From Desulfobacterales bacterium (GTDB lineage: Bacteria > Desulfobacterota > Desulfobacteria > Desulfobacterales > JAHEIW01), in NCBI GenBank assembly GCA_050122495.1, contig JASFIU010000001.1, positions 1 to 44,878 of the forward strand: a stretch of DNA of 44,878 nucleotides. The letters run 5' to 3'. Shown piece after piece: positions 3,606-35,355 of the stretch; position 1 is the stretch's first letter; the number at the start of each line of letters is the position of its first letter. The notes below the pieces were generated by a model. That model was given only the letters and a program-made list of their open reading frames with translations. It did not search any database and was not told where the DNA came from. Position numbers and translations under genes: made by a program.

Positions 3606-3873
3606 TTCTAGTGTTGTGTCCCACAAGTAATTTGCAAAACATCGTCCTGTTTTTAGGTTACAGGTTTCGGATGATCAGAATTTAAAGGTGTCAGTGTTCA
3701 GGTGTCAGGTGTCAGGGCGATGGAGACGCATCGAATTCTCCCCCTGTCATCTGTTTGCTGACACCTGAACACTGACACCTGAAACCGCATAGATTATGTT
3801 GTTTAAAGAACTTAACTGAACACAAATATACCAAACGACTTTGGTAACATTTTTGTGGGACACAACACTAGAA
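3606..3873. repeat. Nested inverted-repeat element (21-bp outer IR, 23-bp inner heptamer IR) in the ilvB 5' UTR
   Basis: The outer IR is perfect: TTCTAGTGTTGTGTCCCACAA at 3606-3626 against its reverse complement at 3853-3873. The inner IR is also perfect: AGGTGTCAGTGTTCAGGTGTCAG at 3686-3708 against 3758-3780. The arms have 7-nt periodicity (AGGTGTC units). Confidence 0.8.
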
Positions 3874-3917
3874 TTATTAATCCGTAACCGATCGTAAATT
3901 GTAAAGAGGTGAACGAA

Positions 3918-5603
3918 ATGAAACTTACCGGTGCTCAAATTATGATGGAAGTATTAAAAGAAGAAGGTGTCGACACAATTTTCGGATTCCCAGGCGGGGC
4001 GGTCATTGATATTTATGATGAACTGGCCAAGACGGATATAAAACATATATTGGTCAGACATGAGCAGGGAGCCGTACATGCGGCCGATGGGTATGCACGC
4101 GCAGGGGCAAAAACCGGGGTTTGCCTGGTTACTTCCGGCCCGGGAGCAACCAATACGGTTTCCGGAATCGCCTCAGCCTATATGGACTCGATACCGATGG
4201 TCATTTTTACGGGCCAGGTGCCGACCCAGTTAATCGGCAACGACGCTTTTCAGGAAGTCGACATCGTCGGCATTACACGCCCCTGCACCAAACACAATTA
4301 CCTGGTTCAATCCACCGAAGAGTTTCCCAAAATTATCAAAGAAGCATTTTATCTGGCGAAATCCGGCCGACCGGGCCCCGTACTCGTCGATATTCCTAAG
4401 GATGTCACCAAAGTGGCCATCGATTATGAACCGATCAAAGAGATCCGGCTAAAATCTTACAATCCAACTTATAATCCCAACATGAAGCAATTGCGCAAGG
4501 TCGTCGAACTGATCGAGCAGGCCGACAGACCGGTTATTTTTGCCGGCGGTGGCGTTATTCTTTCCCAGGCAGCTGCTGAGCTGACGGAGTTTGCCCATAA
4601 AACCCAGATACCGGTTACGACCTCCCTTATGGGCCTGGGCGCCTTTCCAGGAACAGATCCGCTATGGCTCGGGATGCTCGGAATGCACGGTACCTATCGG
4701 GCCAATATGAGCACCGGCGCATGTGATCTGCTTGTATCTATCGGTGTTCGTTTTGACGACCGCGTGACGGGAAAAACAGATGCGTTTGCCTCCCAGGCAA
4801 AAATCGTTCACATCGACATCGATCCAACTTCTATTCGCAAAAACATTCCCGTGACAATTCCCATTGTCGGAGATTGCAAAATCAGTTTGAAGCACTTGAA
4901 CGAATTCATCGACCAGGCCGACCTGAAAGACGTTGGAACAAAACGTCAAAAATGGTTTACGCAAATTGAGGACTGGAAGAACACAAATCCGCTGGCATAT
5001 GAACAGACTGACACCATCAAACCCCAGTATGTCGTTGAGAAGCTCTATGAGCTAACCAAAGGTGAGGCCATTATCACCACCGAGGTCGGGCAAAACCAGA
5101 TGTGGGCGGCTCAATATTATCACTTCGACCGGCCCAACCATTTTATTACATCCGGTGGCCTTGGCTGTATGGGCTTTGGTTTGCCTGCTGCCATAGGCGC
5201 TCAGATGGCCTGCCCTGACAAGCTTGTTGTTGATATTGCCGGAGACGGCAGCATTCAGATGAACATTCAGGAAATGGCCACTGCCATCCAGAGCGGGTTG
5301 CCGGTGAAGGTGGTCATTTTGAATAACGCCTATCTGGGGATGGTCCGTCAATGGCAGGAGTTCTTTTACGACAAACGCTACGCCTGCACGGGCATGGATT
5401 GTGCGCCTGATTTTGTAAAGCTCGCCGAGGCATTCGGAGCGGTCGGTTTAAGAGCATCAACACCGCAAGAGGTAGAAGCTGTGCTAAAAGAGGGACTCGC
5501 CATTCCTGAACCCGTTATCATGGACTTTAAGGTCGATCGGGAAGAAAGTGTTTATCCCATGGTGCCCGCCGGTGCGCCCATTACGGAAATGCTGCTCGTG
5601 TGA
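3918..5603 (+). CDS. ilvB: Acetolactate synthase (acetohydroxyacid synthase) large subunit
   Basis: I prefer ATG 3918 (AAGAGG at 3904-3909, 8 nt upstream) over the track's GTG 3909. The ThDP-binding motif is GGLGCMGFGLPAAIGAQ...IAGDGSIQMNIQE...ILNNAYLGMVRQWQ. The N-terminal motif is GFPGGAVIDIYD. Confidence 0.93.
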   Translation: MKLTGAQIMMEVLKEEGVDTIFGFPGGAVIDIYDELAKTDIKHILVRHEQGAVHAADGYARAGAKTGVCLVTSGPGATNTVSGIASAYMDSIPMVIFTGQVPTQLIGNDAFQEVDIVGITRPCTKHNYLVQSTEEFPKIIKEAFYLAKSGRPGPVLVDIPKDVTKVAIDYEPIKEIRLKSYNPTYNPNMKQLRKVVELIEQADRPVIFAGGGVILSQAAAELTEFAHKTQIPVTTSLMGLGAFPGTDPLWLGMLGMHGTYRANMSTGACDLLVSIGVRFDDRVTGKTDAFASQAKIVHIDIDPTSIRKNIPVTIPIVGDCKISLKHLNEFIDQADLKDVGTKRQKWFTQIEDWKNTNPLAYEQTDTIKPQYVVEKLYELTKGEAIITTEVGQNQMWAAQYYHFDRPNHFITSGGLGCMGFGLPAAIGAQMACPDKLVVDIAGDGSIQMNIQEMATAIQSGLPVKVVILNNAYLGMVRQWQEFFYDKRYACTGMDCAPDFVKLAEAFGAVGLRASTPQEVEAVLKEGLAIPEPVIMDFKVDREESVYPMVPAGAPITEMLLV

Positions 5604-5610
5604 ATACTCT

Positions 5611-5714
5611 GGTTACCGGTTACGGGTTGCGCGTTGCGAGTTAAAAAAAATCTGACCGGATTGATTGCAGCCGCGTTAATTTGAAACCCGCAACTCGCAA
5701 CGCGTAACGCGTAA
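5611..5714. repeat. Heptamer-armed hairpin element (GGTTRCG units) between ilvB and ilvN
   Basis: The left arm 5611-5642 reads GGTTACC GGTTACG GGTTGCG CGTTGCG AGTT. The right arm 5684-5714 reads AAACCCG CAACTCG CAACGCG TAACGCG TAA. An 11-bp perfect pairing joins 5632-5642 to 5692-5702 and extends to about 23 bp with a few mismatches. Confidence 0.75.
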
Positions 5715-5728
5715 TAAGGAATTTAATT

Positions 5729-6217
5729 ATGGAAGAACAAAAGCATACCATGACGATGCTGGTTGATAACCAACCGGGCGTTCTCTCGAGAGTGTCCGGA
5801 CTATTCAGCGGCAAAGGTTTCAACATTGAAAGCTTATGCACGGCGCCGACGATGGACCCCCGGGTTTCCCGAATCACGATCGTCACCAAGGCCAATCCGC
5901 CTTTAATCGAACAAATCGAAAAGCAGCTCCGCAAGCTGATTAACGTTATAAAATTGCGCGACATGACAGGACCGAAGGCTGTTAAAAGGGAGATGGCACT
6001 CATCTGCGTGCAGGCCAAACCTGAACTTCGTGCAGAAATACTGCGAATTGTCGATATCTTTCGTTGTAAAGTAATTGATGTCGGCCTGGAGCATTATATC
6101 ATCGAGGTAACCGGAGATGAAGGGAAATTAACGGCGCTGATAAATCTTCTGCGCCCCATGGGAATAAAGAAGATTGCTCGAAGCGGGACGCTGGCGCTGT
6201 ACCGCGAGCCCAAATAG
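5729..6217 (+). CDS. ilvN: Acetolactate synthase small (regulatory) subunit
   Basis: The ACT-domain N-terminus is HTMTMLVDNQPGVLSRVSGLFSGKGFNIESL. At 162 aa it is the typical IlvH/IlvN size and it follows ilvB. Confidence 0.92.
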   Translation: MEEQKHTMTMLVDNQPGVLSRVSGLFSGKGFNIESLCTAPTMDPRVSRITIVTKANPPLIEQIEKQLRKLINVIKLRDMTGPKAVKREMALICVQAKPELRAEILRIVDIFRCKVIDVGLEHYIIEVTGDEGKLTALINLLRPMGIKKIARSGTLALYREPK

Positions 6218-6360
6218 TTTTCAATTCCTAAATGGCTATTTTTTCACTGGGCCGCGTTCTCCGCGGATTTTAGACCTCAACGTACCAAAAGTACGCCTCG
6301 GCCTAAAATCCTTGTGCGGCCTTACCCAGCAAAAAAATATCTCATTTATGAATTGAAAAC
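6217..6360. repeat. 144-nt imperfect palindrome between ilvN and ilvC
   Basis: Outer arms are GTTTTCAATTCCTAAATG (6217-6234) and CATTTATGAATTGAAAAC (6343-6360), matching at 17 of 18 positions. Inner pairs include GGATTTTAG (6265-6273) with CTAAAATCC (6303-6311). The apex is CGTAC-CAAAA-GTACG (6281-6295). It shares the 15-mer TTCAATTCCTAAATG with 28755-28769. Confidence 0.7.
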
Positions 6361-6425
6361 ACATTTTTAGAAAAAATATGAATTTACGAAAATTAGAGGG
6401 AATCATTTAGAAAAGGAGAAATCGG

Positions 6426-7478
6426 ATGGCACAGTTCAATTTTGGGGGCGTAATGGAAGAAGTGATAACGGACGAAGAATTTCCGCTGCAAAAAGCCCGG
6501 GAAGTTCTGAAAGATGACATCGTTGCGGTGTTGGGTTACGGCGTTCAAGGACCGGGCCAGGCCTTAAACATGAGAGATAACGGAATCAATGTTATCGTGG
6601 GTCAACGCGAAAACAGCGCGTCCTGGGACCGGGCGGTTGCCGACGGTTTTGTGCCGGGCAAAACGCTTTTGCCATTGGTTGAAGCCGCGCAGAAGGCGAC
6701 CGTGATTCAGTACTTGCTCTCAGATGCGGGCCAGATGGCCGTCTGGCCGCAGATAAAAGAATGTCTGGCGGACGGAAATACGCTGTACTTCTCACATGGG
6801 TTTTCGATAGTGTATCACGATCAGACGGCTATCATTCCGCCCAAAAATGTCGATGTGGTTCTGGTCGCCCCCAAGGGATCGGGGCGCACTGTGCGAAGCA
6901 ATTTTCTGGATGGAAGCGGCATCAATTCAAGTTTCGCCATCCATCAGGATTACACCGGTAAGGCCCGCGAAAAAACACTCGCACTGGGGATTGCCATCGG
7001 TTCCGGCTATCTTTTCCCCACCACTTTTGCCAATGAAGTTCACAGTGATTTGACCGGCGAACGCGGTGTTTTAATGGGATGTCTGGCAGGTGTCATGGAA
7101 GCACAGTATAATATTTTGCGGAAACACGGACACAGTCCGAGTGAAGCATTTAACGAGACCGTAGAAGAACTGACCCAGAGCCTTATCCGGCTGGTGGCTG
7201 AAAACGGTATGGATTGGATGTTTGCCAGCTGCTCAACGACAGCGCAACGCGGGGCCCTGGACTGGGCACCCAGATTTCGGGATGCCGTAAAGCCGGTGTT
7301 TGATGAGCTATACGAAAAAGTGATTTCCGGAGCGGAAACCAAACGGGTACTGGAGGCCAACAGCGCTCCGGATTATCGTCAAAAGCTTGATAAAGAACTG
7401 AAGGTTATAAAGGAATCTGAAATGTGGCAAACCGGCGCCGTGGTGCGCTCACTCAGGCCGGAAAACAGGAGAAAATAA
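6426..7478 (+). CDS. ilvC: Ketol-acid reductoisomerase
   Basis: The RBS AAAGGAGAA precedes the ATG. The Rossmann motif is LGYGVQGPGQALNMRDNG. The 350-aa length fits a class I KARI and the gene sits in an ilv context. Confidence 0.95.
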   Translation: MAQFNFGGVMEEVITDEEFPLQKAREVLKDDIVAVLGYGVQGPGQALNMRDNGINVIVGQRENSASWDRAVADGFVPGKTLLPLVEAAQKATVIQYLLSDAGQMAVWPQIKECLADGNTLYFSHGFSIVYHDQTAIIPPKNVDVVLVAPKGSGRTVRSNFLDGSGINSSFAIHQDYTGKAREKTLALGIAIGSGYLFPTTFANEVHSDLTGERGVLMGCLAGVMEAQYNILRKHGHSPSEAFNETVEELTQSLIRLVAENGMDWMFASCSTTAQRGALDWAPRFRDAVKPVFDELYEKVISGAETKRVLEANSAPDYRQKLDKELKVIKESEMWQTGAVVRSLRPENRRK

Positions 7479-7484
7479 ACAAAT

Positions 7485-7624
7485 GAGCGCCTCACTTTCA
7501 GCGAGACTTGAAGAGCGGCTCTCACGAGCTTTGAGGAGCGGCCTTTTAGGCCTCGAGGATTTCAAAAAGCCTTGCCTAAAGCGAAGCGCTCCTAAAAAGA
7601 AGTGCTCTTAAAGCGAAGCGCTCA
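7485..7624. repeat. Inverted element with three tandem 16-mers between ilvC and cimA
   Basis: The right arm has three 16-mers: TAAAGCGAAGCGCTCC (7577-7592), TAAAAAGAAGTGCTCT (7593-7608) and TAAAGCGAAGCGCTCA (7609-7624). The left arm carries inverted GAGCG[CG]C..CTTT units starting at 7485, 7513 and 7536. The centre is GGCC-TTTTA-GGCC (7540-7552). Confidence 0.65.
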
Positions 7625-7645
7625 ATCATGGTTTGGAGAACCCAT

Positions 7646-9265
7646 ATGGACCCCATCTTTCTATATGACACAACCCTAAGAGACGGAACCCAGGGTGAAA
7701 ACGTCACCTTTTCCGCGGAAGAAAAATTAAATATCGCGATGCGCCTGGATGATATCGGCGTTCATTATATTGAAGGTGGTTGGCCTGGTTCGAATCCAAG
7801 AGATATGGCATTTTTTGAACTCGCCAAAAGAGTGGAATTTAAGCAAGCCCGTTTAACTGCTTTTGGCTCAACTCGCAAACCCGGTATCCGCCCGGAGGAG
7901 GATGATAATCTCCAGGCCCTTCTTGAAGCGCAAACACCCACCGTGACGATTTTCGGAAAAAGCTGGGATCTTCACGTTGAGGAAGTGATGAATAATACGC
8001 TTGAGGAAAATCTTAACATGATCAGCGACAGTGTGGCCTATTTAAAGCAACGCGGCTGCGAGGTTATCTATGATGCCGAGCATTTTTTCGATGGCTACAA
8101 AAACAACCAAGACTATGCCATGGAAACACTTGCTGCGGCCATAAGTGCGGGGGCTGATTTTATTGTCTTGTGCGATACCAACGGGGGGACCCTCCCATTG
8201 GAATTAGATTCGATCATCAAGGAAGTTAAAGCGGAAATGATGGACAAACGCGGCAACCCATCTCAAAACGAGGCTATCAAACTCGGAATTCACAGCCATA
8301 ATGACTGCGGCCTAGCGGTGGCCAATTCAATAACCGCCGTCCAAACAGGTGCGGTCATGGTCCATGGAACCATGAATGGATATGGTGAAAGATGCGGTAA
8401 TGCCGATTTGACCTCAATCATTCCGATCCTTTGTTTGAAAATGGGTCATGAGTGCATTTCGGAAAACAATCTTAAAAAACTTAGAAATCTGTCGCGCTAT
8501 GTCAGTGAAACGGCCAATCTGGTTCCCTTAAATTCAAGACCCTTTGTCGGGAAAAGTGCCTTTGCTCATAAAGGCGGCATCCACGTCAGCGCCATTATGA
8601 AAACACCGCGGGCCTATGAACATATGGACCCCGGGCAGGTCGGAAACAAACGCCGCGTTCTGGTCTCCGATCTTTCCGGAAAGAGCAATGTCGAATACAA
8701 GGCAAAAGAACTGGGGATTGAGCTCGGAAAAAATGGCTTTGACAGCCGCAAAATTGCTTCCGAGGTCAAACAGCTGGAACAGGAAGGGTATCAGTTTGAT
8801 ACGGCCGACGGCACGTTTAAAATCCTTTTAGAAAAGTTTACCGATCAATTCAGGCCTCATTTTGAACTCGAATCCTTCAGGGTAACCGTAGAAAAAGACA
8901 AAGACCAGCCCTGCAGCGCCCAGGCAACCATTAAAATATGTGTCGGGGATCGCAAGGAGATTACGGCCGGGGAAGGCTATGGTCCTGTAAGTGCCCTGGA
9001 CAACGCCCTCAGAAAAGCCCTGGATAAATTCTATCCGGATCTCGATACCATGCGCCTCGTCGATTTCAAAGTGCGTGTCATTGATGGAACCCGCGGAACG
9101 GCAGCTAAGGTCAGGGTGTTAATAGAATCACGCGATCAACACCAGATCTGGAGTACCATGGGGGTCTCAGAGGATATCATCGAAGCCAGCTGGCAGGCGC
9201 TGGCAGACAGCTTCCAATTTAAACTTGAAAATGAGGAAAAATTACGAATCGCCAATTCAGCCTGA
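7646..9265 (+). CDS. cimA: (R)-citramalate synthase-type enzyme (LeuA/CimA family, long form)
   Basis: I prefer ATG 7646 (GGAGAA 5 nt upstream). Motifs are LYDTTLRDGTQGE, HSHNDCGLAVANS and a C-terminal LeuA-dimer-type regulatory domain. A canonical leuA paralog lies immediately downstream. The CimA versus LeuA assignment is inferred from motif flavour and context. Confidence 0.75.
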   Translation: MDPIFLYDTTLRDGTQGENVTFSAEEKLNIAMRLDDIGVHYIEGGWPGSNPRDMAFFELAKRVEFKQARLTAFGSTRKPGIRPEEDDNLQALLEAQTPTVTIFGKSWDLHVEEVMNNTLEENLNMISDSVAYLKQRGCEVIYDAEHFFDGYKNNQDYAMETLAAAISAGADFIVLCDTNGGTLPLELDSIIKEVKAEMMDKRGNPSQNEAIKLGIHSHNDCGLAVANSITAVQTGAVMVHGTMNGYGERCGNADLTSIIPILCLKMGHECISENNLKKLRNLSRYVSETANLVPLNSRPFVGKSAFAHKGGIHVSAIMKTPRAYEHMDPGQVGNKRRVLVSDLSGKSNVEYKAKELGIELGKNGFDSRKIASEVKQLEQEGYQFDTADGTFKILLEKFTDQFRPHFELESFRVTVEKDKDQPCSAQATIKICVGDRKEITAGEGYGPVSALDNALRKALDKFYPDLDTMRLVDFKVRVIDGTRGTAAKVRVLIESRDQHQIWSTMGVSEDIIEASWQALADSFQFKLENEEKLRIANSA

Positions 9266-9349
9266 CTAGAATTGGCATGACTTCAAATCTAACAAAAAGG
9301 CCATCACGGCCCAAGGAGACGTCATTTGAAAAGGACAGAAGGAAACAAT

Positions 9350-9383
9350 GCCGCAGGCCCACCGCTGATCCGGTGCCTGCGGC
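9350..9383 (+). other. GC-rich stem-loop in the cimA-leuA spacer
   Basis: GCCGCAGGC (9350-9358) pairs with GCCTGCGGC (9375-9383). ACCG (9361-9364) pairs with CGGT (9371-9374). There is a 2-nt bulge and the loop is CTGATC. No T-run follows. Confidence 0.5.
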
Positions 9384-9480
9384 GTATGCTCCCGGTATTT
9401 AAGGTCAGAGCGTTAATTGGCTAAATAGTTGATTCGGTAAAGACAACTGAATTACCAAACTACAAGGGAGTATAAATAAA

Positions 9481-11019
9481 ATGAGCGATCATGTACTTAT
9501 GTTTGACACCACCTTAAGGGATGGCGAACAAAGCCCGGGTGCCAGTATGAATACAGCCGAAAAATTGCGGCTGGCCACCCAATTGGAAAAACTGGGTGTC
9601 GATATACTGGAAGCTGGTTTTCCGGCTGCATCTGAAGGCGACTTGGAAGCCGTATCGGGGATTGCCGCTAAATTGCAAAGAACCGAGGTTGCGGCCTTAG
9701 CCCGCACCTCCAAAGACGATATCGATCGTGCCTGGAAGGCCATTCGCAAGGCCGCCAAACCCCGAATCCACACCTTTATTGCCACCTCTGACATCCATCT
9801 GGAATACAAACTAAAAATGAGCCGGGAGGAAGTGGTAAGCGCTGCAGTGGAGGCCGTGAAATATTCCAAGTCGCTGACCGATAACGTCGAATTCTCCGCA
9901 GAAGACGGCTCGCGCAGCGACCGGGATTTTCTTTGTAAAGTTTTTGAAGCTGTCATTGAAGCCGGAGCCACCACGGTTAACCTGCCGGATACGGTCGGCT
10001 ATGCCATCCCGGAAGAATTTTCCGATCTTGTCAGCTACATTAAGGCCCACACCCCGAATATCGACAAAGCCGTCTTAAGCGTGCACTGCCACAACGATTT
10101 GGGGCTGGCAACCGCCAATACGCTTTCAGCGATTAATGCCGGTGCCCGGCAGGCTGAAGTGACCATCAACGGTATCGGGGAGCGCGCCGGCAACACCTCT
10201 CTTGAAGAAGTCGTGATGGCCCTGGTCACACGCAACAATTCTTTGGGGCTGACGACTTCGATCAATACCGAATTTATCCATCCGACCAGCCGTCTGGTCA
10301 GCATGATTACCGGTATTATCGTACAGCCGAATAAAGCCGTAGTCGGCGCCAACGCATTTGCCCATGAGGCCGGCATCCATCAGGACGGTGTGCTCAAAAA
10401 TCCCATGACCTATGAGATCATGAAGCCGGAAACCATCGGACTCAGCACCAACAAGCTCGTACTCGGCAAGCACTCCGGAAGACACGCCTTGCGCTCCCGT
10501 CTGAAAGAGATGGGTTACGATTTATCGGATGAGGAAATTAACCTGGTCTTCACCCGCTTTAAGGAACTGGCGGACAAAAAAAAGCATGTTGTTGATGAAG
10601 ACCTGGAAGTGATCGTCACCGAAGGCATCCTGCGCACCTCCGATATTTTTAATCTCGAATATCTGCACGTGACCGCGGGCACGACCGTTCTACCCATGGC
10701 CAGTGTCAAGCTGGATATCAACGGAAGGCCGGCACGGGGCGCCGGTTACGGCAATGGGCCGATCGATGCGGCTTTTAACGCCATCGCCGAACTGACCGGA
10801 ACAACATCGGAACTGTTGCGGTTTTCAGTCAGTGCATTGACCGGCGGCACGGATGCCCAGGGGGAAGTCACCGTTCGGCTGAGAGAAAACGGGTTGCTGG
10901 CACTCGGTAAAGGCGCCGATTCCGACATCATCACCGCCAGTGCCAAAGCATACGTGAATGGGTTGAACCGGCTGGAATATCTGAAAATGCATCCGATCAA
11001 AGAGGCGGTGGTGTTGTAA
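9481..11019 (+). CDS. leuA: 2-isopropylmalate synthase
   Basis: Motifs are FDTTLRDGEQSPG and HCHNDLGLATANT. A C-terminal LeuA allosteric domain is present. The length is 512 aa. Confidence 0.93.
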   Translation: MSDHVLMFDTTLRDGEQSPGASMNTAEKLRLATQLEKLGVDILEAGFPAASEGDLEAVSGIAAKLQRTEVAALARTSKDDIDRAWKAIRKAAKPRIHTFIATSDIHLEYKLKMSREEVVSAAVEAVKYSKSLTDNVEFSAEDGSRSDRDFLCKVFEAVIEAGATTVNLPDTVGYAIPEEFSDLVSYIKAHTPNIDKAVLSVHCHNDLGLATANTLSAINAGARQAEVTINGIGERAGNTSLEEVVMALVTRNNSLGLTTSINTEFIHPTSRLVSMITGIIVQPNKAVVGANAFAHEAGIHQDGVLKNPMTYEIMKPETIGLSTNKLVLGKHSGRHALRSRLKEMGYDLSDEEINLVFTRFKELADKKKHVVDEDLEVIVTEGILRTSDIFNLEYLHVTAGTTVLPMASVKLDINGRPARGAGYGNGPIDAAFNAIAELTGTTSELLRFSVSALTGGTDAQGEVTVRLRENGLLALGKGADSDIITASAKAYVNGLNRLEYLKMHPIKEAVVL

Positions 11020-11027
11020 ATCGGAAG

Positions 11028-11120
11028 CGTTACGGGTTGCGCGTTTCGAATTGCGGGTTAATTACTAAAAAAAGCATTATTTCGTACTAACGCGCAACAC
11101 GTAACCCGTAACACGCAACG
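11028..11120. repeat. Heptamer-armed hairpin element (GGTTRCG units) between convergent leuA and pyrD
   Basis: The left arm reads CGTTACG GGTTGCG CGTTTCG AATTGCG GGTT (11028-11059). The right arm reads TAACGCG CAACACG TAACCCG TAACACG CAACG (11088-11120). It shares an identical 17-mer, GTTACGGGTTGCGCGTT (11029-11045), with 5619-5635. Confidence 0.75.
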
Positions 11121-11133
11121 ATTTGACCATCCA

Positions 11134-12075: not shown

Positions 12076-12208
12076 CAATATCTCAGTTCTCTTCGCTCAT
12101 CGCCGGAGGCGAAGCAAGATGGAATGATAGATTACTTTAGCGCTGTATCGCGTCCCCGAGTTGCATCGCATTGCAAAATATCATGATTCATGCCAAAAAC
12201 CAATAGAT

Positions 12209-16637: not shown

Positions 16638-16687
16638 AATTTACCCCAAAACCCCATCTTTGGCCCGAGTTCTTTAAACAAAATAAT

Positions 16688-16835
16688 GGTTTCAGGTGTT
16701 CCCGCCGCGGCGGGATTCAGGTGTCAGGATTCAAAGATTAAGGAATTCAGGAATTGAGGGATTTAAGAATTAGAATGATAGAATGCCTTCAATTCCTTTA
16801 TTCCTGAATTTATCTGACACCTGACACCTGAAACC
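16688..16835. repeat. CAGGTGT-heptamer hairpin element with conserved 52-nt core
   Basis: The left arm GGTTTCAGGTGT / TTCAGGTGTCAGG (16688-16728) is interrupted by a perfect 16-nt palindrome, TCCCGCCGCGGCGGGA (16700-16715). The right arm is CTGACAC CTGACAC CTGAAAC C (16814-16835). The core 16759-16810 matches 28725-28776 at about 45 of 52 positions by manual alignment. Confidence 0.8.
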
Positions 16836-16933
16836 TGCTATCGAAAATTACCCATGGAAATCTACATTGGGTATCCACACAAACAATCACTGTTATAGAA
16901 CTTAATCCAACATCCAATCAGGAGGGCTCCGTT

Positions 16934-25094: not shown

Positions 25095-25095
25095 G

Positions 25096-25992: not shown

Positions 25993-26040
25993 GGTGCTGT
26001 TTCATACGCATTAAAGGGTTAAATTATTCTTATCTTTACT

Positions 26041-26117
26041 GGCCGTCCGTTGCCGGTTGTCAGTGGTCCGTTGTCGGGTCATTACCACGGACAACGGACC
26101 ACAAACAACGGACACTG
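26041..26117. repeat. CCGTTGT-heptamer hairpin element
   Basis: The left arm units are CCGTTGC CGGTTGT CAGTGGT CCGTTGT. The right arm units are ACAACGG ACCACAA ACAACGG. A 13-bp perfect stem pairs GTGGTCCGTTGTC (26063-26075) with GACAACGGACCAC (26090-26102). The 22-mer at 26054-26075 matches 34128-34149 at 20 of 22 positions. Confidence 0.75.
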
Positions 26118-26124
26118 AATAGTT

Positions 26125-26877: not shown

Positions 26878-26957
26878 CCCCGGTTCGAAGCCATCTCAAC
26901 ATTAGAAGTTAATCTTCGAAGACATATAAAAATAAGTTGAAAAGGTGCTCTTTAGTT

Positions 26958-27164
26958 AGAAATGCCTGAAATGCCTAAAATGAGCTAAAATGACTAAAGT
27001 TGAGGAATACTACCCGTCGGGAGCCTCCGGGTCGAACGATCATATTTACAATCAAAGATGGAGCGTCACGCGGCGCAGTTGTCGCGCTGCGCGAGCGACG
27101 CCATAATTTTAGGCATCTAAGATCATTTTATCCGCCACCGATCTTTGGCGGATTAGCTCATTTG
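26958..27164. repeat. Mosaic inverted-module element with AAATGMCTA repeats and a GC-rich hairpin
   Basis: The left side has tandem 9-10-mers, AAATGCCTG AAATGCCTA AAATGAGCTA AAATGACTA (26960-26996). Inverted copies on the right are ATTTTAGGCAT (27106-27116), TCATTTT (27123-27129) and TAGCTCATTT (27154-27163). A GC hairpin GCGTC...GACGC lies at 27063-27101. Confidence 0.6.
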
Positions 27165-27170
27165 TTGTTA

Positions 27171-28604: not shown

Positions 28605-28650
28605 GAAGCATCCTTTCTCCTCTTAATTCAGTACCTCTCCATCGTGTTGC

Positions 28651-28832
28651 GTCCCACAAGTACCCAACAAAACACGGCCCTGCTTCAGGTTTCAGGTTTC
28701 GGGTGTCAGGGTTCAATGATTGATGGATTTAGGAATTAGCATGACAGAATACCTTCAATTCCTAAATGCCTGAATTCGCAACTTCCTATCTCTCTGCATC
28801 TTCCTGACACCTGAACACGGACACCTGACACC
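28651..28832. repeat. CAGGTGT-heptamer hairpin element with conserved 52-nt core (second full copy)
   Basis: The left module 28651-28703 is homologous to 3618-3670. The left arm reads CAGGTTT CAGGTTT CGGGTGT CAGGGTT (28686-28713). The core is 28725-28776. The right arm reads CTGACAC CTGAACA CGGACAC CTGACAC (28804-28831). Confidence 0.75.
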
Positions 28833-28865
28833 ATGAATATTTAATATCCCAAATGCAGTCACATC

Positions 28866-28894
28866 TTGACGAATCGACAACGGCGTGAAATAAT
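28866..28894 (+). promoter_or_regulatory. Candidate sigma70 promoter for the 29016 gene / ABC operon
   Basis: TTGACG (28866-28871), a 17-nt spacer and AATAAT (28889-28894). It lies about 120 nt upstream of the ATG. Confidence 0.3.
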
Positions 28895-29015
28895 TACGTA
28901 TAAAACTAAAGCAGCACCCACTCGTCTGGCCCGGGTGATCCAACTGGTTTAGCGGTGCCAATCTCCGGATCAGGGTATTATAGGGCACCTATCGGAGAAT
29001 TCAAAGGGATTTTTG

Positions 29016-29789
29016 ATGGAACATGTAAACTCCGATGATTTCAACATAGAAGCGTCTTCTCCGGCTAAAGGTACGGCGGAGAAAGAAAAGGCCGAAAAAA
29101 CGCTCCGGCGCAACATCATTGCACAGTTGAAAACGAAAGCATTAAAGCGAAAACGGACGCCAGCTTCCTCTCAAATGATTTCGTCGTCAAAGCCGGAACG
29201 CTCGTTACCTTTGGGGCTTTCGAAGAAACGATTGCTTTTTGGCAGTGCCGGAATTATTTTTGTGATACTGATCGGGCTCGTTATTCACACCAGTTTTAAT
29301 AATAAGCGTCATTATTATCTGAAATCAGCAGCCGGTGCCGTGGAAATCTGGCAGGGAACCTTCTCACCGGGGGGAAAAAAGCGCATTCTGATTATGCCCG
29401 GAGTTCAGATTCCAGCAAAGATAAAAAAGGTTTATACAAAAGCGGAAGTTTATCCGCTGGCATTTGATTTTTATGTCAGCAAGGCGGATGCCTTGATGGA
29501 AGTGCCAGGCATGCCCGATTTTGTCGGCATCAAGTCTTATCTGAATAGAGCCCTTTTTTTTGCCACAACCCAAAGCCTGCGCCAGACAGCCGAGGCCCGA
29601 ATCAACCAAATTGATCGCATGATTCTTTTCTATAAGGCTGATGTGGCCGCGACCAAAGGCACCCGTGCCGGTCTTGAGGCGGCCCTTGATTATCTCGACC
29701 AGGTCGCCGAATTGAATCCCGATGAGATTGAAGCCGAGCTCATCGAAAAGAAAAAAGCAGCGATTCGTGAATTACTTAAAAGCTTATAA
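29016..29789 (+). CDS. Hypothetical single-pass membrane protein
   Basis: I prefer ATG 29016 (AAAGGGA 6 nt upstream). The N-terminus is basic and is followed by one TM helix (LLFGSAGIIFVILIGLVI). I recognise no family motif. It is the first gene before the ABC importer. Confidence 0.55.
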   Translation: MEHVNSDDFNIEASSPAKGTAEKEKAEKTLRRNIIAQLKTKALKRKRTPASSQMISSSKPERSLPLGLSKKRLLFGSAGIIFVILIGLVIHTSFNNKRHYYLKSAAGAVEIWQGTFSPGGKKRILIMPGVQIPAKIKKVYTKAEVYPLAFDFYVSKADALMEVPGMPDFVGIKSYLNRALFFATTQSLRQTAEARINQIDRMILFYKADVAATKGTRAGLEAALDYLDQVAELNPDEIEAELIEKKKAAIRELLKSL

Positions 29790-29801
29790 GCAACATACCG
29801 A

Positions 29802-31934
29802 ATGACCACCAAACGCATTCTCATATTTGCACCACTGTTACTGACATTGATCCTGGTCCAATCGTACTTCTGGGTTCCCACCTACGAACAACAGGCCAAA
29901 GGCAACCCAGACCGCTTGAATCAATATATCAATGCATCGATCGGGGATGCCGCACTTCTTATCCCGATATTATCAGCAGACAGTGCCAGCAGCGAAATAG
30001 AAGGAAAAGTTTTTGAAGGATTAATCGACCGCGATGAGGATCTGAGTTTCAGGGGACGGCTGGCGACGGCCTGGCGTATTTTTGAAGAAGCTTATTTTTA
30101 CATCAACGCAAGGGCCGATGTCCCCGGCAGCGGTCAAATCGGCCCTCAGGCGGTTGCAGAATTACTCCAAAATTCTAAGCAAAAAAAGAATCTGGAACCT
30201 CCAGCATTGAAAAAGACACTGGACAATATTCGTTCAATTTCGGTAGTTGAACCGCAGACTTACACGGTGAACCGCTTAAACCGAACCTCCCCTGATGCCA
30301 AAAAAAACAGCAACATAAAAATCGGCGTTGCAGCGCCTGCCAGAATTAAACTGGTTTTAGATGAAGTCGATCAAGATCTGTTTACGAATCTAAAACATCT
30401 CCTCGGTGATCAATATTTTTCAAGTTTCCGCGGACAGCGATTTTTGAAGACGCCATCCCCTATCGATAAGGAAATGCTGTCGTTTTATGCCAATGAATTA
30501 CTGCCGGCAACAGAGCACAATCCGGTTATCGTGTTTAACCTGCGGGAAAACGTTAAATTTCATGACGGCCACATATTTGATGCCCACGATGTCAAGTTCA
30601 CCTATGAGGCCATTATGAATCCCAGGAATCTCTCGCCCCGCGTCGCAGACTATGAACCGGTCAAAAAAGTAGAGGTGATCGATCCGCTTACCGTTCGTAT
30701 TGTTTACAAGCGACTTTACTCACCGGCCATCGGAACCTGGGGCATGGGGATCCTGCCCGAGCATCTCCTCAACTCGCAAGCGCTCAAGACAGAAGCGCTG
30801 GCATTGGGCGAAGACGTGCAAAAATTCACGATGCGACAAAGCGGGTTCGCCCGCCATCCCATCGGATGCGGACCATTTGTGTTCCGCGAGTGGAAATCGG
30901 ATCAGTACATCGTCCTGGACCGTTTTGAGGACTACTGGGAAGGACCGCCCAATTATAAAAAATACATCTTCAGGGTCATCCCCGATCTACTGACTCAGGA
31001 AATGGAGTTTTACGCCGGAACCATTGACAATTATGGTGTGCAGCCCCACCAGGTCAAACGTCTGAAAGAAGATCCGAATTATCAGAGTTTTTCCGGCACC
31101 TCATTCGGCTACACTTACATCGGGTACAACATGCGTCGGGAACCCTTTGATGATATCCGCGTCCGTCAGGCCTTAAGCATGGCAATCGATGTGGACAAAA
31201 TCATTCAGTATGTCATTTACAACCAGGGAGAAAGAATTACAGGCCCGTTCCTAAGACAGACTGATTTTTATAACCATAATATCAAACCGGTTCCATATGA
31301 TCCCGAAGGGGCTTTAAAGTTACTCGCCGAAGCCGGGTGGAAGCGCAACAATGAGGGCTGGCTCGAAAAAGACGGTCAGCGCTTGCAATTCAAGCTCATC
31401 ACCAACAATGGCAATGATATTCGCAAGGCGATTCTATCCATCGCCCAGGATTCATGGAAACAAATTGGCATCGACGTGCGCACCGATCTTTTGGAGTGGG
31501 CTGTTTTTATCCAGGAACGCGTCAACAAGCTTGACTTTGATGCCCTGGTGCTGGGCTGGTCGATGGGGATCGATCCCGACCTCTACCAGATTTGGCATTC
31601 CAGCCAGACGGGTTTTAATCAGCTTAATTTTGTGGGCTTTAAAAACGAAAAAGCCGATGATCTCATCATAAAAATCAGACAGGAATATAACCACGCGCAA
31701 CAGGTCGAATACTGTCACCGCTTGCATGAGATCATCGCCGAAGAACAGCCTTATACGTTTCTGTACGTCGGCAAATGGACCGCGATTTTGGACAAACGAA
31801 TAATGATACGCAATGATGACAATCCTGCTATGATCGTTTATGAAAAAATTAAGCCGACCAAAACGGGCAGCTATAGCTTTCACTTCAACAAATGGATCAA
31901 ACTGGCGGAGATGCCTGAAATGTCGCCACAGTAA
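29802..31934 (+). CDS. ABC transporter substrate-binding protein, family 5 (peptide/nickel, OppA/DppA-like) with a large insertion
   Basis: Family-5 SBP blocks are present (LATAWRI ... NLRENVKFHDGH ... YIGYNMRREPFDD ... LLAEAGW). At 710 aa it is about 150 aa longer than usual. It has an N-terminal anchor helix. Confidence 0.85.
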   Translation: MTTKRILIFAPLLLTLILVQSYFWVPTYEQQAKGNPDRLNQYINASIGDAALLIPILSADSASSEIEGKVFEGLIDRDEDLSFRGRLATAWRIFEEAYFYINARADVPGSGQIGPQAVAELLQNSKQKKNLEPPALKKTLDNIRSISVVEPQTYTVNRLNRTSPDAKKNSNIKIGVAAPARIKLVLDEVDQDLFTNLKHLLGDQYFSSFRGQRFLKTPSPIDKEMLSFYANELLPATEHNPVIVFNLRENVKFHDGHIFDAHDVKFTYEAIMNPRNLSPRVADYEPVKKVEVIDPLTVRIVYKRLYSPAIGTWGMGILPEHLLNSQALKTEALALGEDVQKFTMRQSGFARHPIGCGPFVFREWKSDQYIVLDRFEDYWEGPPNYKKYIFRVIPDLLTQEMEFYAGTIDNYGVQPHQVKRLKEDPNYQSFSGTSFGYTYIGYNMRREPFDDIRVRQALSMAIDVDKIIQYVIYNQGERITGPFLRQTDFYNHNIKPVPYDPEGALKLLAEAGWKRNNEGWLEKDGQRLQFKLITNNGNDIRKAILSIAQDSWKQIGIDVRTDLLEWAVFIQERVNKLDFDALVLGWSMGIDPDLYQIWHSSQTGFNQLNFVGFKNEKADDLIIKIRQEYNHAQQVEYCHRLHEIIAEEQPYTFLYVGKWTAILDKRIMIRNDDNPAMIVYEKIKPTKTGSYSFHFNKWIKLAEMPEMSPQ

Positions 31935-31955
31935 ATTATAGCATCGGTAGAAAAA

Positions 31956-32915
31956 ATGATTTCATTTATCGGCCGCAGCGTCGTCCAGAAAATAATCACC
32001 CTGTTTTTTGTTTCGATTGTGTCGTTTTTGATCATCCACCTGGCCCCCGGCGAGCCCAGCCAGGTGGATCCCATGAATCCCAAATTCACGCGTGAAATGG
32101 TTGAAAGGTTTCGTGAGGAATTTCATCTGGATGAACCCCTTTATATTCAGTATCTTTATTTTTACCGCGACCTGTTCACCGGCAAAACCATTTCCTGGAA
32201 GGATAACCAACCGGTCCTGAAAAAGATATGGGAACGATTTCTGAACAGCCTGTGGCTGTTTATCGTGGGCACCATTCTGACCTGGACCATTTCTTTTCCG
32301 ATCGGAATCCGCTCGGCACTTTTCAGGGGCGGATTTTATGACCGCAGCTCGACATTTTTTGCCTATCTATTGATCTCGATCCCGGGCTTCTTTTTTGCCT
32401 ATATCCTGATTATTTTCGTGGTCACTCAATTTCAGGTGCCGGTTATCGGGATGGTGACATTTGGCATTGGTGACACCCCCTGGACGAACCGGGTCATGGA
32501 CAGGATCTGGCATCTGCTGCTGCCTTCCCTTCTGGGTGCGACCGGCGGCATCGCTGTTCTTTCCCGCTATGTTCGCAGCCAGATGCTCGAGGTCGAAGGT
32601 CAGGATTACGTCCGCACGGCCAAAGCCAAAGGACTTGCACCGGATCAGGTGCATTATAAGCATGCCCTGCGTAACGCCCTGCTGCCGTTTGTAACCATGT
32701 TTGGACTGATCCTGCCCGGTCTGATCGGCGGATCGGTCATTATCGAATCGATATTCGCATGGCCGGGCATGGGCAGAATGGCCTATGAAGCCATCCTCGC
32801 CAGAGACTATCCGGTCATTTTAACGATTAACTTTGTTTCGGCGGTGCTGGTACTGGTCGGCACTTTTATTTCGGATCTTCTTTATATGGTGGTAGACCCC
32901 AGAATACGATTGTAA
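31956..32915 (+). CDS. ABC transporter permease (DppB/OppB-like)
   Basis: The N-terminus RSVVQKIITLFFVSIVSFLIIHLAPGEP is typical. An EAA-loop region (YVRTAKAKGL) is present. Confidence 0.9.
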   Translation: MISFIGRSVVQKIITLFFVSIVSFLIIHLAPGEPSQVDPMNPKFTREMVERFREEFHLDEPLYIQYLYFYRDLFTGKTISWKDNQPVLKKIWERFLNSLWLFIVGTILTWTISFPIGIRSALFRGGFYDRSSTFFAYLLISIPGFFFAYILIIFVVTQFQVPVIGMVTFGIGDTPWTNRVMDRIWHLLLPSLLGATGGIAVLSRYVRSQMLEVEGQDYVRTAKAKGLAPDQVHYKHALRNALLPFVTMFGLILPGLIGGSVIIESIFAWPGMGRMAYEAILARDYPVILTINFVSAVLVLVGTFISDLLYMVVDPRIRL

Positions 32916-34087
32916 TGGCTGTAAACTCACATACGGACACACCGGATTATCAGTTGGATGAGCCGCTGGCGCCCAAGCGTACCCGCCTGGAGGAGTTCTG
33001 GCGTCTATTCAAGCGCAACAGAATGGCCATCGCGGGAATGGTTTTTTTCATTGCTTTTTTCTTCCTTGCCATCGCCGGCTGGGGATTAACGCACGGCAAC
33101 AATCCTGTTCTGGATCCGGCGGTGGTGCGATTGCAGGACAAATTACGTCCGCCGCTGGCCAGACCCAACCTTGAAATGCTGCAGCCCAATGAAGTCCCCG
33201 AGCTCGGCATCTATATCCTGGGTACCGATGATCTGGGGCGTGATGTCTTTGCCAGAATGCTTCAGGGTTCCTGGGTATCTTTGACTGTCGGTTTTGTGGC
33301 GGTCGGTATCGCGATTATTATCGGGATATTTTTGGGCGGAATAGCAGGATATTACGGGCAACGCCATATCCGTATCAATCAGCTGATTGCCGCTGGATTT
33401 TTGACAGCGGGCGCTATTCTATTGATTACTGATCTGATTTGGGCGGGGGCCGTATTTTTATTTTGCGGCCTGGTCTGCACCCTGATATCGATTTTGACGA
33501 AAAAATCGGCTAATGCCAAAATCAAACCCGCCTGGGCCCGTGTCTGGTATTTTAATACCATTTCCATAGACACCGTTGTCATGCGCTTTGTGGATATCAT
33601 GCTGTGTTTTCCCAGCTTTTTTCTGATTCTTACGGTCGTCGCGTTGCTGCCAGCCAGCATTTACAACATCATGATCGTTATTGGATTAACCAGCTGGATG
33701 GGAACCACACGCTTTGTGCGCGCCGAATTTCTTTCATTGCGCGAACAGGACTTTGTGGCCGCTGCCCGGTCGCTGGGACTGGAAGATTTTCGAATCATCT
33801 TCCGCCATATAATGCCCAATGCGGTTGCACCGGTGCTGGTTTCCGCAACCATTGGTATCGCCACCGCGATTTTGACCGAAGCCGGCCTAAGCTTTCTCGG
33901 ATTCGGAGTGCCGCCCCCGCACGCCACCTGGGGAAATATTTTATCGGGCGGCAAAGGATTTATTTTCGACGCGCCCTGGCTGACCTTTGTGCCGGGAATT
34001 GCCATCTTAATTGTGGTGCTGTCATTTAACCTGTTTGGAGAAGGATTGCGGGATGTCCTCAATCCAAAACTACGCGAACGAAATTAG
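32915..34087 (+). CDS. ABC transporter permease (DppC/OppC-like) with an extra hydrophobic insertion
   Basis: Motifs are ILGTDDLGRDVFARM and the EAA loop FVAAARSLG. The start overlaps the upstream stop (ATGA-type junction at 32915). About 70 extra residues with two hydrophobic stretches are encoded at nt 33359-33568. Confidence 0.88.
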   Translation: MAVNSHTDTPDYQLDEPLAPKRTRLEEFWRLFKRNRMAIAGMVFFIAFFFLAIAGWGLTHGNNPVLDPAVVRLQDKLRPPLARPNLEMLQPNEVPELGIYILGTDDLGRDVFARMLQGSWVSLTVGFVAVGIAIIIGIFLGGIAGYYGQRHIRINQLIAAGFLTAGAILLITDLIWAGAVFLFCGLVCTLISILTKKSANAKIKPAWARVWYFNTISIDTVVMRFVDIMLCFPSFFLILTVVALLPASIYNIMIVIGLTSWMGTTRFVRAEFLSLREQDFVAAARSLGLEDFRIIFRHIMPNAVAPVLVSATIGIATAILTEAGLSFLGFGVPPPHATWGNILSGGKGFIFDAPWLTFVPGIAILIVVLSFNLFGEGLRDVLNPKLRERN

Positions 34088-34122
34088 TAACGCTTTCAAT
34101 CAAATTAAATTGGCAAATGCCA

Positions 34123-34211
34123 CAAGTCCGTTGTCAGTCGTCCGTTGTCCGTTGTTGAAAAACCGCAGATCAAATATCTGCTACGGACCACTAACAACAA
34201 TCAACGGACAC
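34123..34211. repeat. CCGTTGT-heptamer hairpin element between oppC-like and oppD-like genes
   Basis: The left arm reads CAAGT CCGTTGT CAGTCGT CCGTTGT CCGTTGT TG (34123-34157). The right arm reads CTACGG ACCACTA ACAACAA TCAACGG ACAC (34181-34211). A central 6-bp hairpin pairs GCAGAT with ATCTGC (34165-34181). Confidence 0.75.
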
Positions 34212-34235
34212 TTTCTAAAACCAAAAGGAAGATGA

Positions 34236-35252
34236 TTGTATAAAATGTCGGGCAAAAACGACATACTGCTTTCAGTTGAGGATCTGAAAGTGTACTTTCG
34301 CAGCGAAGATACGGTTGCCCGGGCTGTGGATGGGGTCAGTTTCGATGTGCGCCGGGAAGAAACCGTCTGTCTGGTGGGAGAGTCCGGTTGCGGCAAAACC
34401 GTCACCGCCCTTAGCGTAATGGGCCTGGTTCCCATTCCGCCCGGCGAAATTGCCGACGGCCGGGTTTTATATCGAGAAAAAAATTTGCTGGAATTCAATG
34501 ATACCGAAATGCAGCAAATCCGCGGCAATCAAATTGCCATGGTCTTCCAGGAACCCCTGACCTCTTTAAATCCAGTCTTTACCATTGGCGACCAGGTCGG
34601 CGAGGCCATCAGCACGCACGAAGATATTCCCGAGAACGAAGTCACCCAGCGCAGCGTGCAGCTATTAAGAGACGTCGGCATCGCGTCAGCGACAGATCGC
34701 CTCAGTGATTACCCCCACCAACTCAGCGGCGGGCAGCGTCAGCGCGTCATGATTGCCATGGCCCTGGCCTGCAGCCCGGACCTGATCATCGCTGACGAGC
34801 CCACCACGGCCCTGGATGTCACCGTGCAGGCTCAGATTTTGCGCCTGCTGGATTCAATTCAGAAATTACGCGCCATGTCGGTCTTGTATATCACCCACGA
34901 CCTGGGGGTGGTCTCAAAGGTCGCCGATCGCGTATGCGTCATGTATGCCGGTATCATCGTTGAACAGGGAAGCCGGCAAGATATTTTTAAAAGCTCAAAA
35001 CATCCTTACACCCAGGCGTTGCTGGCATCGCTTCCCAATCGAGAAAAAAGGGGGCAGCGACTCTATAGCATCCCGGGCACGGTGCCGAATCCGGCATATA
35101 AACCCAGCGGCTGTCCGTTTCATCCGCGCTGCCAGCACGCCATTCAAACCTGCCGGAAGCAATATCCGCGAATGTGCGGGTATGAAGATGGGCACCAGGC
35201 GCGCTGTCCGGTACTGTATGATGGCGGCAAGGAACATTGGAGCGAACATTGA
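34236..35252 (+). CDS. ABC transporter ATP-binding protein (DppD/OppD-like)
   Basis: Walker A is GESGCGKT, the signature is LSGGQRQR and Walker B is LIIADEPT. A C-terminal oligopeptide-transporter Cys motif is present. The start is ambiguous: TTG 34236 (AAGGAAG 5-6 nt upstream) or ATG 34245. Confidence 0.92.
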   Translation: MYKMSGKNDILLSVEDLKVYFRSEDTVARAVDGVSFDVRREETVCLVGESGCGKTVTALSVMGLVPIPPGEIADGRVLYREKNLLEFNDTEMQQIRGNQIAMVFQEPLTSLNPVFTIGDQVGEAISTHEDIPENEVTQRSVQLLRDVGIASATDRLSDYPHQLSGGQRQRVMIAMALACSPDLIIADEPTTALDVTVQAQILRLLDSIQKLRAMSVLYITHDLGVVSKVADRVCVMYAGIIVEQGSRQDIFKSSKHPYTQALLASLPNREKRGQRLYSIPGTVPNPAYKPSGCPFHPRCQHAIQTCRKQYPRMCGYEDGHQARCPVLYDGGKEHWSEH

Positions 35253-35355
35253 TTTTGGATTTTGGAATTTAGATTTTGGATCGAAACGATGTAAGTTGAT
35301 GCTTAGTCAATTAGTCGGCTGTTAAATCCAAAATCCGAGATCTAAAATCTAAAAT
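35251..35355. repeat. GATTTTG-heptamer hairpin element between the two ATPase genes
   Basis: The left arm reads GATTTTG GATTTTG GAATTTA GATTTTG GATC (35251-35282) and overlaps the stop codon at 35250-35252. The right arm reads AAATCC AAAATCC GAGATCT AAAATCT AAAAT (35324-35355). About 31 positions pair, with an internal loop and G.U pairs. Confidence 0.8.

Follow-up and report, generated by a model that had tools for sequence, protein, structure and literature searches.

Hairpins with tandem heptamer arms in the intergenic spacers of a Desulfobacterales-like genome

Introduction

What makes and maintains a series of long hairpins whose arms are themselves tandem arrays of seven-nucleotide units, and do such hairpins serve the transcripts that contain them? 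The question is raised by a 44,878-nucleotide stretch of DNA from a Desulfobacterales bacterium (contig JASFIU010000001.1), the whole of which was analysed and is referred to here as the window. Eight of its spacers carry elements of this kind. The original prediction, made from the letters of the window alone, took them to be one class of element spread over the window and favoured a role at the level of RNA. We consider it probable, with real room for doubt, that they are slippage-driven heptamer arrays whose inverted partners are made and matched by DNA-level copying, and which spacers tolerate and the genes of the window lack. Nor is the class new, having been described as the STRRs (short tandemly repeated repetitive sequences) of filamentous cyanobacteria (PMC2670836) and as convergent repeat pairs in Xanthomonas (PMC4692102).

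Results

Eight hairpins with period-7 arms

Tandem Repeats Finder and an inverted-repeat search located all eight predicted elements, numbered E1 to E8 here, and bore out the claim of a single geometry written in several unit alphabets. Period-7 arrays start at 3686, 3758, 5699, 11088, 16814, 26087, 28684, 28803, 34126, 35251 and 35324. The inverted-repeat search joins left and right arms, and inverted arms are present in eight of the eight elements. All of them fold into strong, long hairpins, with folding energies (dG) of -31 to -74 kcal/mol and z-scores of -3.3 to -9.7 relative to shuffled sequences.

We used a uniform periodicity test, in which at least 16 of 21 positions are identical to the base p nucleotides downstream, and found nine arrays in the window at period 7 against none or one at every other period between 4 and 13. 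Three matches at period 14 coincide with period-7 elements and are therefore the second harmonic. Across 100 dinucleotide shuffles of the window the mean number of period-7 arrays was 0.05, with a maximum of 1. A looser threshold gave 13 arrays, all 13 of which are intergenic (11.8% of the window) and none within genes. The feature is real and highly non-random. It is less widespread than the original prediction had it, which placed elements in nearly every long junction: 8 of the 24 spacers of at least 60 nt are occupied, or 8 of the 20 of at least 110 nt, and the element-free spacers include lengths of 208, 215, 276, 310, 432 and 479 nt.

The best arm-to-arm offsets are exactly 7 nt apart (+6, -1, -8 and -15 for E1; +13, +6, -1, -8 and -15 for E8) with 75-100% of positions pairable, which shows that the predicted pairing in several slipped registers is correct. 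The copies of E2, E4, E7 and E8 are identical in independent metagenome assemblies, with E7 and E8 both present in contigs L087 and L088, and the hairpins are therefore no assembly artefact. Two further metagenome contigs stop within E4 (L089, ending at 3714, and L091, ending at 1676), making the hairpins break points in short-read assembly.

The eight elements occupy a variety of junctions. E1 (3686..3786, unit AGGTGTC, dG -59.6, z -8.0) sits between the topA terminator and ilvB, with arms at 3686-3716 and 3758-3786 around a 41-nt centre. Both arms have period 7 and contain a 23-nt perfect inverted repeat (3686-3708 and 3758-3780, 100%), in which the variant unit GTGTTCA is mirrored. E2 (5611..5714, unit GGTTRCG, dG -47.4, z -5.4) lies in the 125-nt ilvB|ilvN spacer, beginning approximately 7 nt past the ilvB stop and ending right before the ilvN Shine-Dalgarno sequence AAGGA, with inverted arms at 5620-5642 and 5692-5714 that match at 91%. 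E3 (11028..11120, unit GTTRCGS, dG -32.9/-34.8) lies where a leuA/cimA-like gene (+) and pyrD (-) converge with their 3' ends. E4 (16688..16838, dG -73.7, z -9.7) is composite, its outer arms being CAGGTGT arrays at 16688-16728 and 16814-16838. E5 (26041..26117, units GTCCGTT/GTTGTCA, dG -37.1/-40.5) has a centre of just 4 nt and separates minus-strand aspartyl-protease-like and PAP2 genes. The second composite element, E6 (28684..28832, outer arms CAGGTKT, dG -50.3, z -4.5), occupies a divergent promoter region. E7 (34123..34211, unit GTCCGTT, dG -30.7/-36.2) and E8 (35251..35355, unit GATTTTG, dG -35.3 on the plus strand) lie in the oppC|oppD-like and oppD|oppF-like spacers. The first unit of E8 overlaps the oppD stop codon, and its inverted arms (35252-35281 and 35326-35355) match at 80%.

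Arm pairing without strand preference

Selection acting on the sense transcript should make both G-U pairs and hairpin stability favour the sense strand. In the 46 co-directional hairpins of the window and all loci examined (relatives' loci and metagenome contigs, numbered with an L, L092-L211 being among the metagenomic ones), sense and antisense strands each gave the more stable fold 23 times, gene orientation in the loci being taken from crude open reading frame (ORF) calls. G-U pairs in the same hairpins numbered 153 sense versus 162 antisense. A first set had given 10 of 13 in favour of the sense strand, and sense/antisense stability was dropped as evidence of RNA-level selection once the larger set came out even. 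The result removes the sole sequence-based support for an RNA-level purpose, without being final, and points instead to arm complementarity that is maintained without strand bias, at the level of DNA.

Gene orientation tells a similar story. The hairpins fall in 46 co-directional, 11 convergent and 15 divergent gene pairs, so that no class is avoided, as judged by raw counts for which background class frequencies were not computed. In the terminator scan no heptamer-arm hairpin was followed by a 3' U-tract, and the hairpins thus lack a defining feature of intrinsic terminators (a short GC-rich stem and small loop with a U-tract directly 3'). The single match inside any element fell on the minus strand of E7, at a minor stem within it. 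Here the E7 centre (34165-34181, minus strand) contains a small stem-loop, GCAGAT..ATCTGC, followed by GGTTTTTC, which is terminator-like and faces against the opp operon. The Rfam 15 covariance models, run over the whole window, gave no match at the gathering score and none even at E<=0.1. The RNA-level role favoured by the original prediction thus finds no support in the strand comparison, the orientations or the U-tract scan.

Turnover among strains and relatives

The arms vary by whole units. Between contigs that encode identical IlvN proteins, the left arm of E2 is one 7-nt unit shorter in L001 and the right arm one such unit longer in L002. The ilvB|ilvN spacers of the window and L002 are 63-65% identical, versus 98% for the flanking coding DNA; the E2 centre of L002 is essentially replaced and its arms retain the pattern GTTNCGN. 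Change in step is seen at E3, whose orthologue in L007 (leuA-like|pyrD) has ATTGCGG in the left arm and CCGCAAT in the right where the window has GTTRCGS and SCGYAAC. Both arms of this orthologous hairpin have drifted together, and the idea that arms stay complementary as their sequence changes is confirmed here. The strains at E2, a set of few distinct sequences with register shifts, give little information on compensatory change: a double change is clear in a single arm pair, and several pairs are broken.

At other sites the elements differ between relatives altogether. The E2 junction of L007 carries a GTTATTC/GAATAAC hairpin, and its E1 site is empty, with 60 nt from the topA terminator to ilvB versus 319 nt in the window. 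The canonical terminator hairpin downstream of topA, with its flanking A- and T-runs, is itself kept (window 3541-3590, L007 9890-9940). Relative to L007 the E1 region amounts to an insertion of approximately 270-280 nt, and the alignment showed no homology past the terminator by which its ends could be defined.

We measured the ilvB|ilvN spacer in 77 of 86 loci, 71 of the 77 being species-representative relatives, and found it to be shorter than 60 nt in 43. Hairpins with differing tandem units occupy this junction in the window, L007, L015, L055, L027 (period 8) and L041/L042 (period 9). L029 has a GTTAGCC array that is short and folds weakly, L012 has a GGTTGCG array that is long and solo, and units of the GCCTAAAG type (period 8-9) fill the spacers of L011, L012, L041 and L042. 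Array density among relatives ranges from 0 to 12 per ~20 kb. As judged from these comparisons, the short ilvB|ilvN junction would be ancestral, with repeat hairpins of different units present in several lineages. The picture is one of hairpins that are quickly gained, lost and altered, each lineage in its own way, at intergenic sites that permit them, and not of a conserved regulatory structure.

Arm polarity and unit types

All eight window elements have a G/T-rich 5' arm and an A/C-rich 3' arm. This G-rich-first polarity holds on both strands, because the reverse complement of a hairpin has the same property. A metagenome scan for CAGGTGTCAGGTGTCAG returned at least 120 contigs. Among the matches listed, these had G+C contents of 37-71%, and in the 96 with enough flanking sequence complementary ACACCT units lay downstream in 42 and upstream in 3; at least two such units occurred downstream in 19 versus none upstream. 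Taking all unit types of the window and loci together (the metagenome ones being among the matches listed), G exceeds C in the 5' arm of 93 of 100 paired arrays. The ratio is 59:0 for CAGGTGT, among the matches listed, and 34:7 for the other types.

Five of the seven exceptions have the unit GAACRTC, and in all five of its hairpins in the set (L106 4219-4416 and 7389-7510; L122 5724-5818; L165 909-1086; L183 1678-1922) the A/C-rich arm is 5'. Since this unit is reversed in every one of them, polarity is fixed per unit type. Avoidance of Rho, which would never expose the C-rich arm first, was considered as the cause and is unsupported, as solo arrays show no bias relative to gene orientation (8 versus 9). 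A directional step in DNA synthesis and common descent within a unit type are both candidates.

With arm partners detected by local segment scoring, the loci contain 189 solo direct arrays and 101 paired ones. The units of 334 arrays, a sample selected for AGGTGTC, are one-step neighbours of AGGTNTC/AGGNTTC plus a few others (CGGGTTG, ATTGCGG, CCGTTGT and ATTTTGG), and no sub-motif is conserved across unit types in these 334. The right arm of E1 (29 nt + ATAG) is identical to a hairpin arm in the unrelated metagenome contig L146. We also observed CAGGTGT arrays within long ORFs of L092-L211, where, among the matches listed, ORF and G-rich strand coincide in 10 of 11 solo and 2 of 2 paired arrays. 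These may be real coding repeats with a seven-residue period, or the ORFs may be spurious.

Nested elements and neighbouring motifs

The original prediction had stressed different sequences with the same geometry. Several unit types do occur, and yet E4 and E6 share, besides their CAGGTGT-type arms, approximately 70 nt of centre at ~85% identity, which identifies them as nested, homologous copies. This centre is itself a hairpin of AGGAATT-type units (16737-16810 in E4). The E1 centre is unrelated to it, and most metagenome hairpins with the same arms likewise have unrelated centres. Within E4 a GC palindrome of 14 nt, CCCGCCGCGGCGGG (16701-16714), splits the left heptamer arm and forms a small stem of its own. 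We considered this palindrome as a small dispersed element and rejected the idea, as it is confined to E4 and orthologous contigs.

Around E1 lies an outer inverted repeat (3606..3873) with arms at 3606-3639 and 3840-3873, matching over 34 nt at 82%, in which a core, TTCTAGTGTTGTGTCCCACAA, is perfect over 21 nt. The motif of this core, GTGTTGYGTCCCACAAGTA, is 19 nt long, contains the internal palindrome TTGTG..CACAA and occurs three times in the window (3611-3629 on the plus strand, 3850-3868 on the minus strand and 28644-28662 on the plus strand) versus never in shuffles. Two inverted copies flank E1, and the motif stands ~40 nt upstream of the start of ilvB and of a glycerol-phosphate acyltransferase-like gene (start 28604, minus strand), in equal orientation relative to the gene. 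A regulator site, a leader element and a small dispersed repeat are all possible readings of it. This outer motif of E1 had no match in any related or metagenome locus examined.

Seven is the dominant but not the exclusive period. A hairpin at 26950..27130 has an arm made of a tandem 9-nt unit, AAATGCCTA, with period 9 at 26960-26998 and an inverted repeat at 26976-27001 and 27105-27130, and the class is therefore not strictly heptameric. This 8-9-nt repeat type (AAATGCCTA/GTGCCTAAAG, forming hairpins) and a 16-nt direct repeat, CCTAAAGCGAAGCGCT, present three times upstream of the first leuA/cimA-like gene, account for the features at 26950-27130 and 7575-7623; units related to AAATGCCTA/GTGCCTAAAG were seen again in distant Desulfobacterota. 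The ilvN|ilvC spacer (6218-6425) has nested inverted repeats (6217-6234 with 6343-6360, and 6265-6285 with 6291-6311) without heptamer arrays, and has TTCCTAAATG in common with the E6 centre.

Host and gene content

The closest IlvB relatives in a collection of species-representative genomes are uncultured deltaproteobacterial/Desulfobacterales metagenome-assembled genomes, at 88% identity (L007) and then 80%. By this measure the host is a Desulfobacterales-like deltaproteobacterium, and the cyanobacterial origin that the repeats had at first suggested is rejected. The window is ordinary chromosome, carrying dprA, topA, ilvB, ilvN, ilvC, two leuA/cimA-like genes, pyrD and rpsI, together with an opp-type ABC transporter, hydantoinase genes and pxp carboxyltransferase/LamB genes. 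Domain searches of the window ORFs found no transposase and no RAYT (REP-associated tyrosine transposase; REP, repetitive extragenic palindromic), in line with the original prediction.

Discussion

How might hairpins of this kind arise and persist? We propose that arrays would expand and contract through replication slippage, and that the inverted partner would be made, and kept matched, by DNA-level copying, either template switching or quasi-palindrome correction between the arms. Selection on one transcript would then not be the force that matches the arms. Selection would instead purge arrays from coding sequence and tolerate them in any spacer. Where they are transcribed, the arrays would fold into long, multi-register stem-loops near stop codons and start sites, so that mRNA decay, processing and translational coupling could be altered locus by locus. 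The RNA hairpins would be a consequence or side effect with no demonstrated purpose, and may matter at single loci such as ilvB|ilvN.

Several points weigh against this account. Slippage and template switching are deduced from patterns rather than observed, and they leave unexplained the preference for 7 nt, the same units in unrelated contigs (over the G+C range given above for the matches listed) and the fixed polarity. The crude gene calls in the loci weaken the even split between strands. Within the window the sense strand is the more stable in five of six co-directional hairpins, and several hairpins begin 0-10 nt past a stop codon, which fits an RNA role. The common centre of E4 and E6 and the insertion of E1 relative to L007 hint at some mobility. 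Finally, the account is based on 45 kb of this genome.

The seven-nucleotide ruler, the polarity and the recurrence of units are not explained by slippage alone and would be by a dedicated, directional process shared across phyla, of which the arrays would be products or substrates. This could be a snap-back or template-switch synthesis in which the G-rich array always ends up 5' of its complement, or a protein that binds single strands with a footprint of 7 nt and reads the arrays. If true, it would account at once for the ruler, for polarity in 93 of 100 pairs and for units that recur in unrelated genomes across a G+C range of 37-71% among the matches listed. The idea is speculative and, to our minds, unlikely.

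The strongest competitor is that the hairpins are selected RNA devices, which protect 3' ends from exonucleases, direct RNase III processing of polycistronic transcripts or couple and decouple the translation of neighbouring cistrons. In apparent operons, E2, E5, E7 and E8 separate genes that run in one direction; the outermost pairs of E2, starting so close to the ilvB stop, include the GG of the ilvN Shine-Dalgarno sequence, and E8, which takes in the oppD stop codon, has 7 G-U pairs on the sense versus 2 on the antisense strand, in keeping with the better sense folds of the window. Transcript stability, translational coupling and pausing have likewise been proposed for the STRR hairpins of cyanobacteria (PMC2670836), and reporter data from Nostoc suggest that heptamer repeats can alter expression (bioRxiv 10.1101/2022.06.06.494920). 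Against it stands the larger set, where neither stability nor G-U pairing prefers the sense strand. Hairpins are also present where promoters diverge (E6) and where genes converge (E3), they have neither U-tracts nor an Rfam match, and at ilvB|ilvN the junction is short and hairpin-free in most relatives, with spacer turnover far above that of the genes. We regard a selected RNA device as rather unlikely.

A further reading is that the hairpins are non-autonomous mobile DNA, comparable to MITEs (miniature inverted-repeat transposable elements) or to REPINs, the hairpin-forming REP doublets, and copied by a transposase or RAYT encoded elsewhere. E4 and E6 resemble two copies in both outer arms and centre, E1 with its 21-34-nt outer inverted repeat (~270 nt) is missing from the orthologous site of L007, and its right arm recurs in the unrelated contig L146; polarity fixed per unit type is also what copies related by common descent would show. 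The ends of E1, its outer inverted repeat, E4 and E6 have no flanking direct repeats that would be target-site duplications, however, and most hairpins that have their arms in common differ in their centres; the arms themselves vary by whole units. Orthologous hairpins keep their sites as they drift, solo arrays make up about two thirds of those in the loci, and the window has no transposase or RAYT domain. Mobility as the general explanation is in our view distinctly improbable. A function of the DNA itself, in which cruciform-prone arrays buffer supercoils between transcription units or form a platform for a protein with a 7-nt footprint, would agree with complementarity that shows no strand bias and with intergenic positions independent of gene orientation. 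Multi-register arms would ease cruciform nucleation, three units make 21 bp, or about two helical turns, and the idea that each heptamer might hold one cold-shock protein has been raised for heptamer repeats (PMC4679880). On the other side, no sub-motif is shared between unit types, and the patchiness and rapid turnover among close relatives argue against an essential role; we consider it very improbable indeed. Slippage with DNA-level matching of the arms therefore remains the account that we prefer.

These results extend heptamer repeats to Desulfobacterota and to many unrelated environmental contigs. The fixed polarity, shared unit types, joint drift of arms, lack of strand bias and differing units at one operon junction all turn into testable questions. 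There are practical consequences as well: the hairpins break short-read assemblies, and they place 25-40-bp segments of double-stranded RNA within housekeeping operons (ilvBN, opp), which matters for the modelling of expression in these organisms.

Comparison with known repeat systems

Tandem heptamer repeats have been known since the reports of STRRs, and their over-representation among the simple repeats of bacteria has been remarked on. In the RNase P RNA gene, STRRs lengthen helix P12. The title of a paper cited in PMC2858038 places STRRs inside this gene in heterocystous cyanobacteria. STRR hairpins are 'not unusual in filamentous cyanobacteria', for example between hupS and hupL, and usually consist of 7-bp repeats of unknown function (PMC2670836). 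We found no published report of such heptamer repeats in Desulfobacterota (Desulfobacterales, Desulfonema) in the literature.

Several familiar structures can be set aside. CRISPR arrays, with repeats of ~23-50 nt and unique spacers, are excluded by 7-nt units that are contiguous and arranged as two inverted blocks. Integron attC sites have a 7-bp core, but neither GTTACGG nor GTTGCGC agrees with its pattern GTTRRRY, and the genes here are housekeeping genes and not cassettes, as far as a reading of the sequence goes. REP elements, BIMEs (bacterial interspersed mosaic elements) and REPINs of enterobacteria and pseudomonads are a closer comparison, being intergenic, often intercistronic or at 3' ends, and forming inverted doublets that fold as hairpins (for the REPIN concept see PMC3116915). 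Each of their arms, however, is one imperfect palindrome of ~20-35 nt that belongs to one or a few families spread through the genome and is mobilised by a RAYT, whereas the arms here are tandem 7-mers of four types that vary by whole units, with no RAYT in the window. The elements are thus neither CRISPR nor classic REP, as the original prediction had held. REP elements can also stabilise upstream mRNA. Bacterial MITEs such as Nezha of Anabaena/Nostoc are small, non-coding, intergenic and foldable, with terminal inverted repeats; E4 and E6 are similarly copy-like and E1 insertion-like. Unlike MITEs, the elements here have no target-site duplication and mostly unconserved centres, and their arms are internally periodic and variable in length.

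Among the heptamer repeats proper, the TAACTGA repeats of marine Beggiatoaceae, some cyanobacteria and Bacteroidetes, which have no known mechanism of transfer, are likewise intergenic arrays of 2-6 copies with one unit in phylogenetically distant bacteria (MacGregor 2015, PMC4679880). Binding by a protein with a footprint of 7 nt is suggested for them. Nearly all of those arrays are direct and immediately precede start codons, only one set in 170 being inverted, whereas here every window array is half of an inverted pair and its position relative to start codons varies. The nearest match in arrangement is Xanthomonas. X. campestris and X. axonopodis have 183-186 GGGAATC-type arrays per genome, of which 70-75 form convergent inverted pairs (Rehm et al. 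2015, PMC4692102). The arrays are mostly of ~4 units and intergenic, and vary extensively in length and sequence between related species; that study also cites a proposal that polymerase slippage favours heptamers, and states that no detailed literature on heptamer repeats exists. Its 'convergent' pairs, capable of forming stem-loops or cruciforms, correspond to the G-rich-arm-first polarity seen here. In Xanthomonas one G-quadruplex-forming unit dominates, while at least four units occur here, none with a G-tract of three or more, and some elements (E1, E4 and E6) are composite or nested.

With STRRs the elements share tandem 7-bp units, several unit sequences per genome, intergenic or intercistronic location and hairpin formation. 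The unit GTTGTCA of E5 and E7 even corresponds to ttgtcag, one of the repeats of Nostoc PCC 7120 (PMC2408588, Table 3). They differ in the shortness of the arrays (3-5 units), in the pairing of all eight in the window, in most unit sequences, and in the host, a Desulfobacterales-like deltaproteobacterium rather than a filamentous, mostly heterocystous cyanobacterium. The 7-nt unit is repeated head-to-tail at least three times in non-coding DNA, with four unit types in 45 kb, inverted hairpins and copy variation by whole units, so that the structure is that of an STRR and the original cyanobacterial host is not; we therefore file the elements as STRR-like, and not as STRRs sensu stricto. By this likeness they belong to a known, poorly understood kind, the heptamer hairpins of the STRR and Xanthomonas types.

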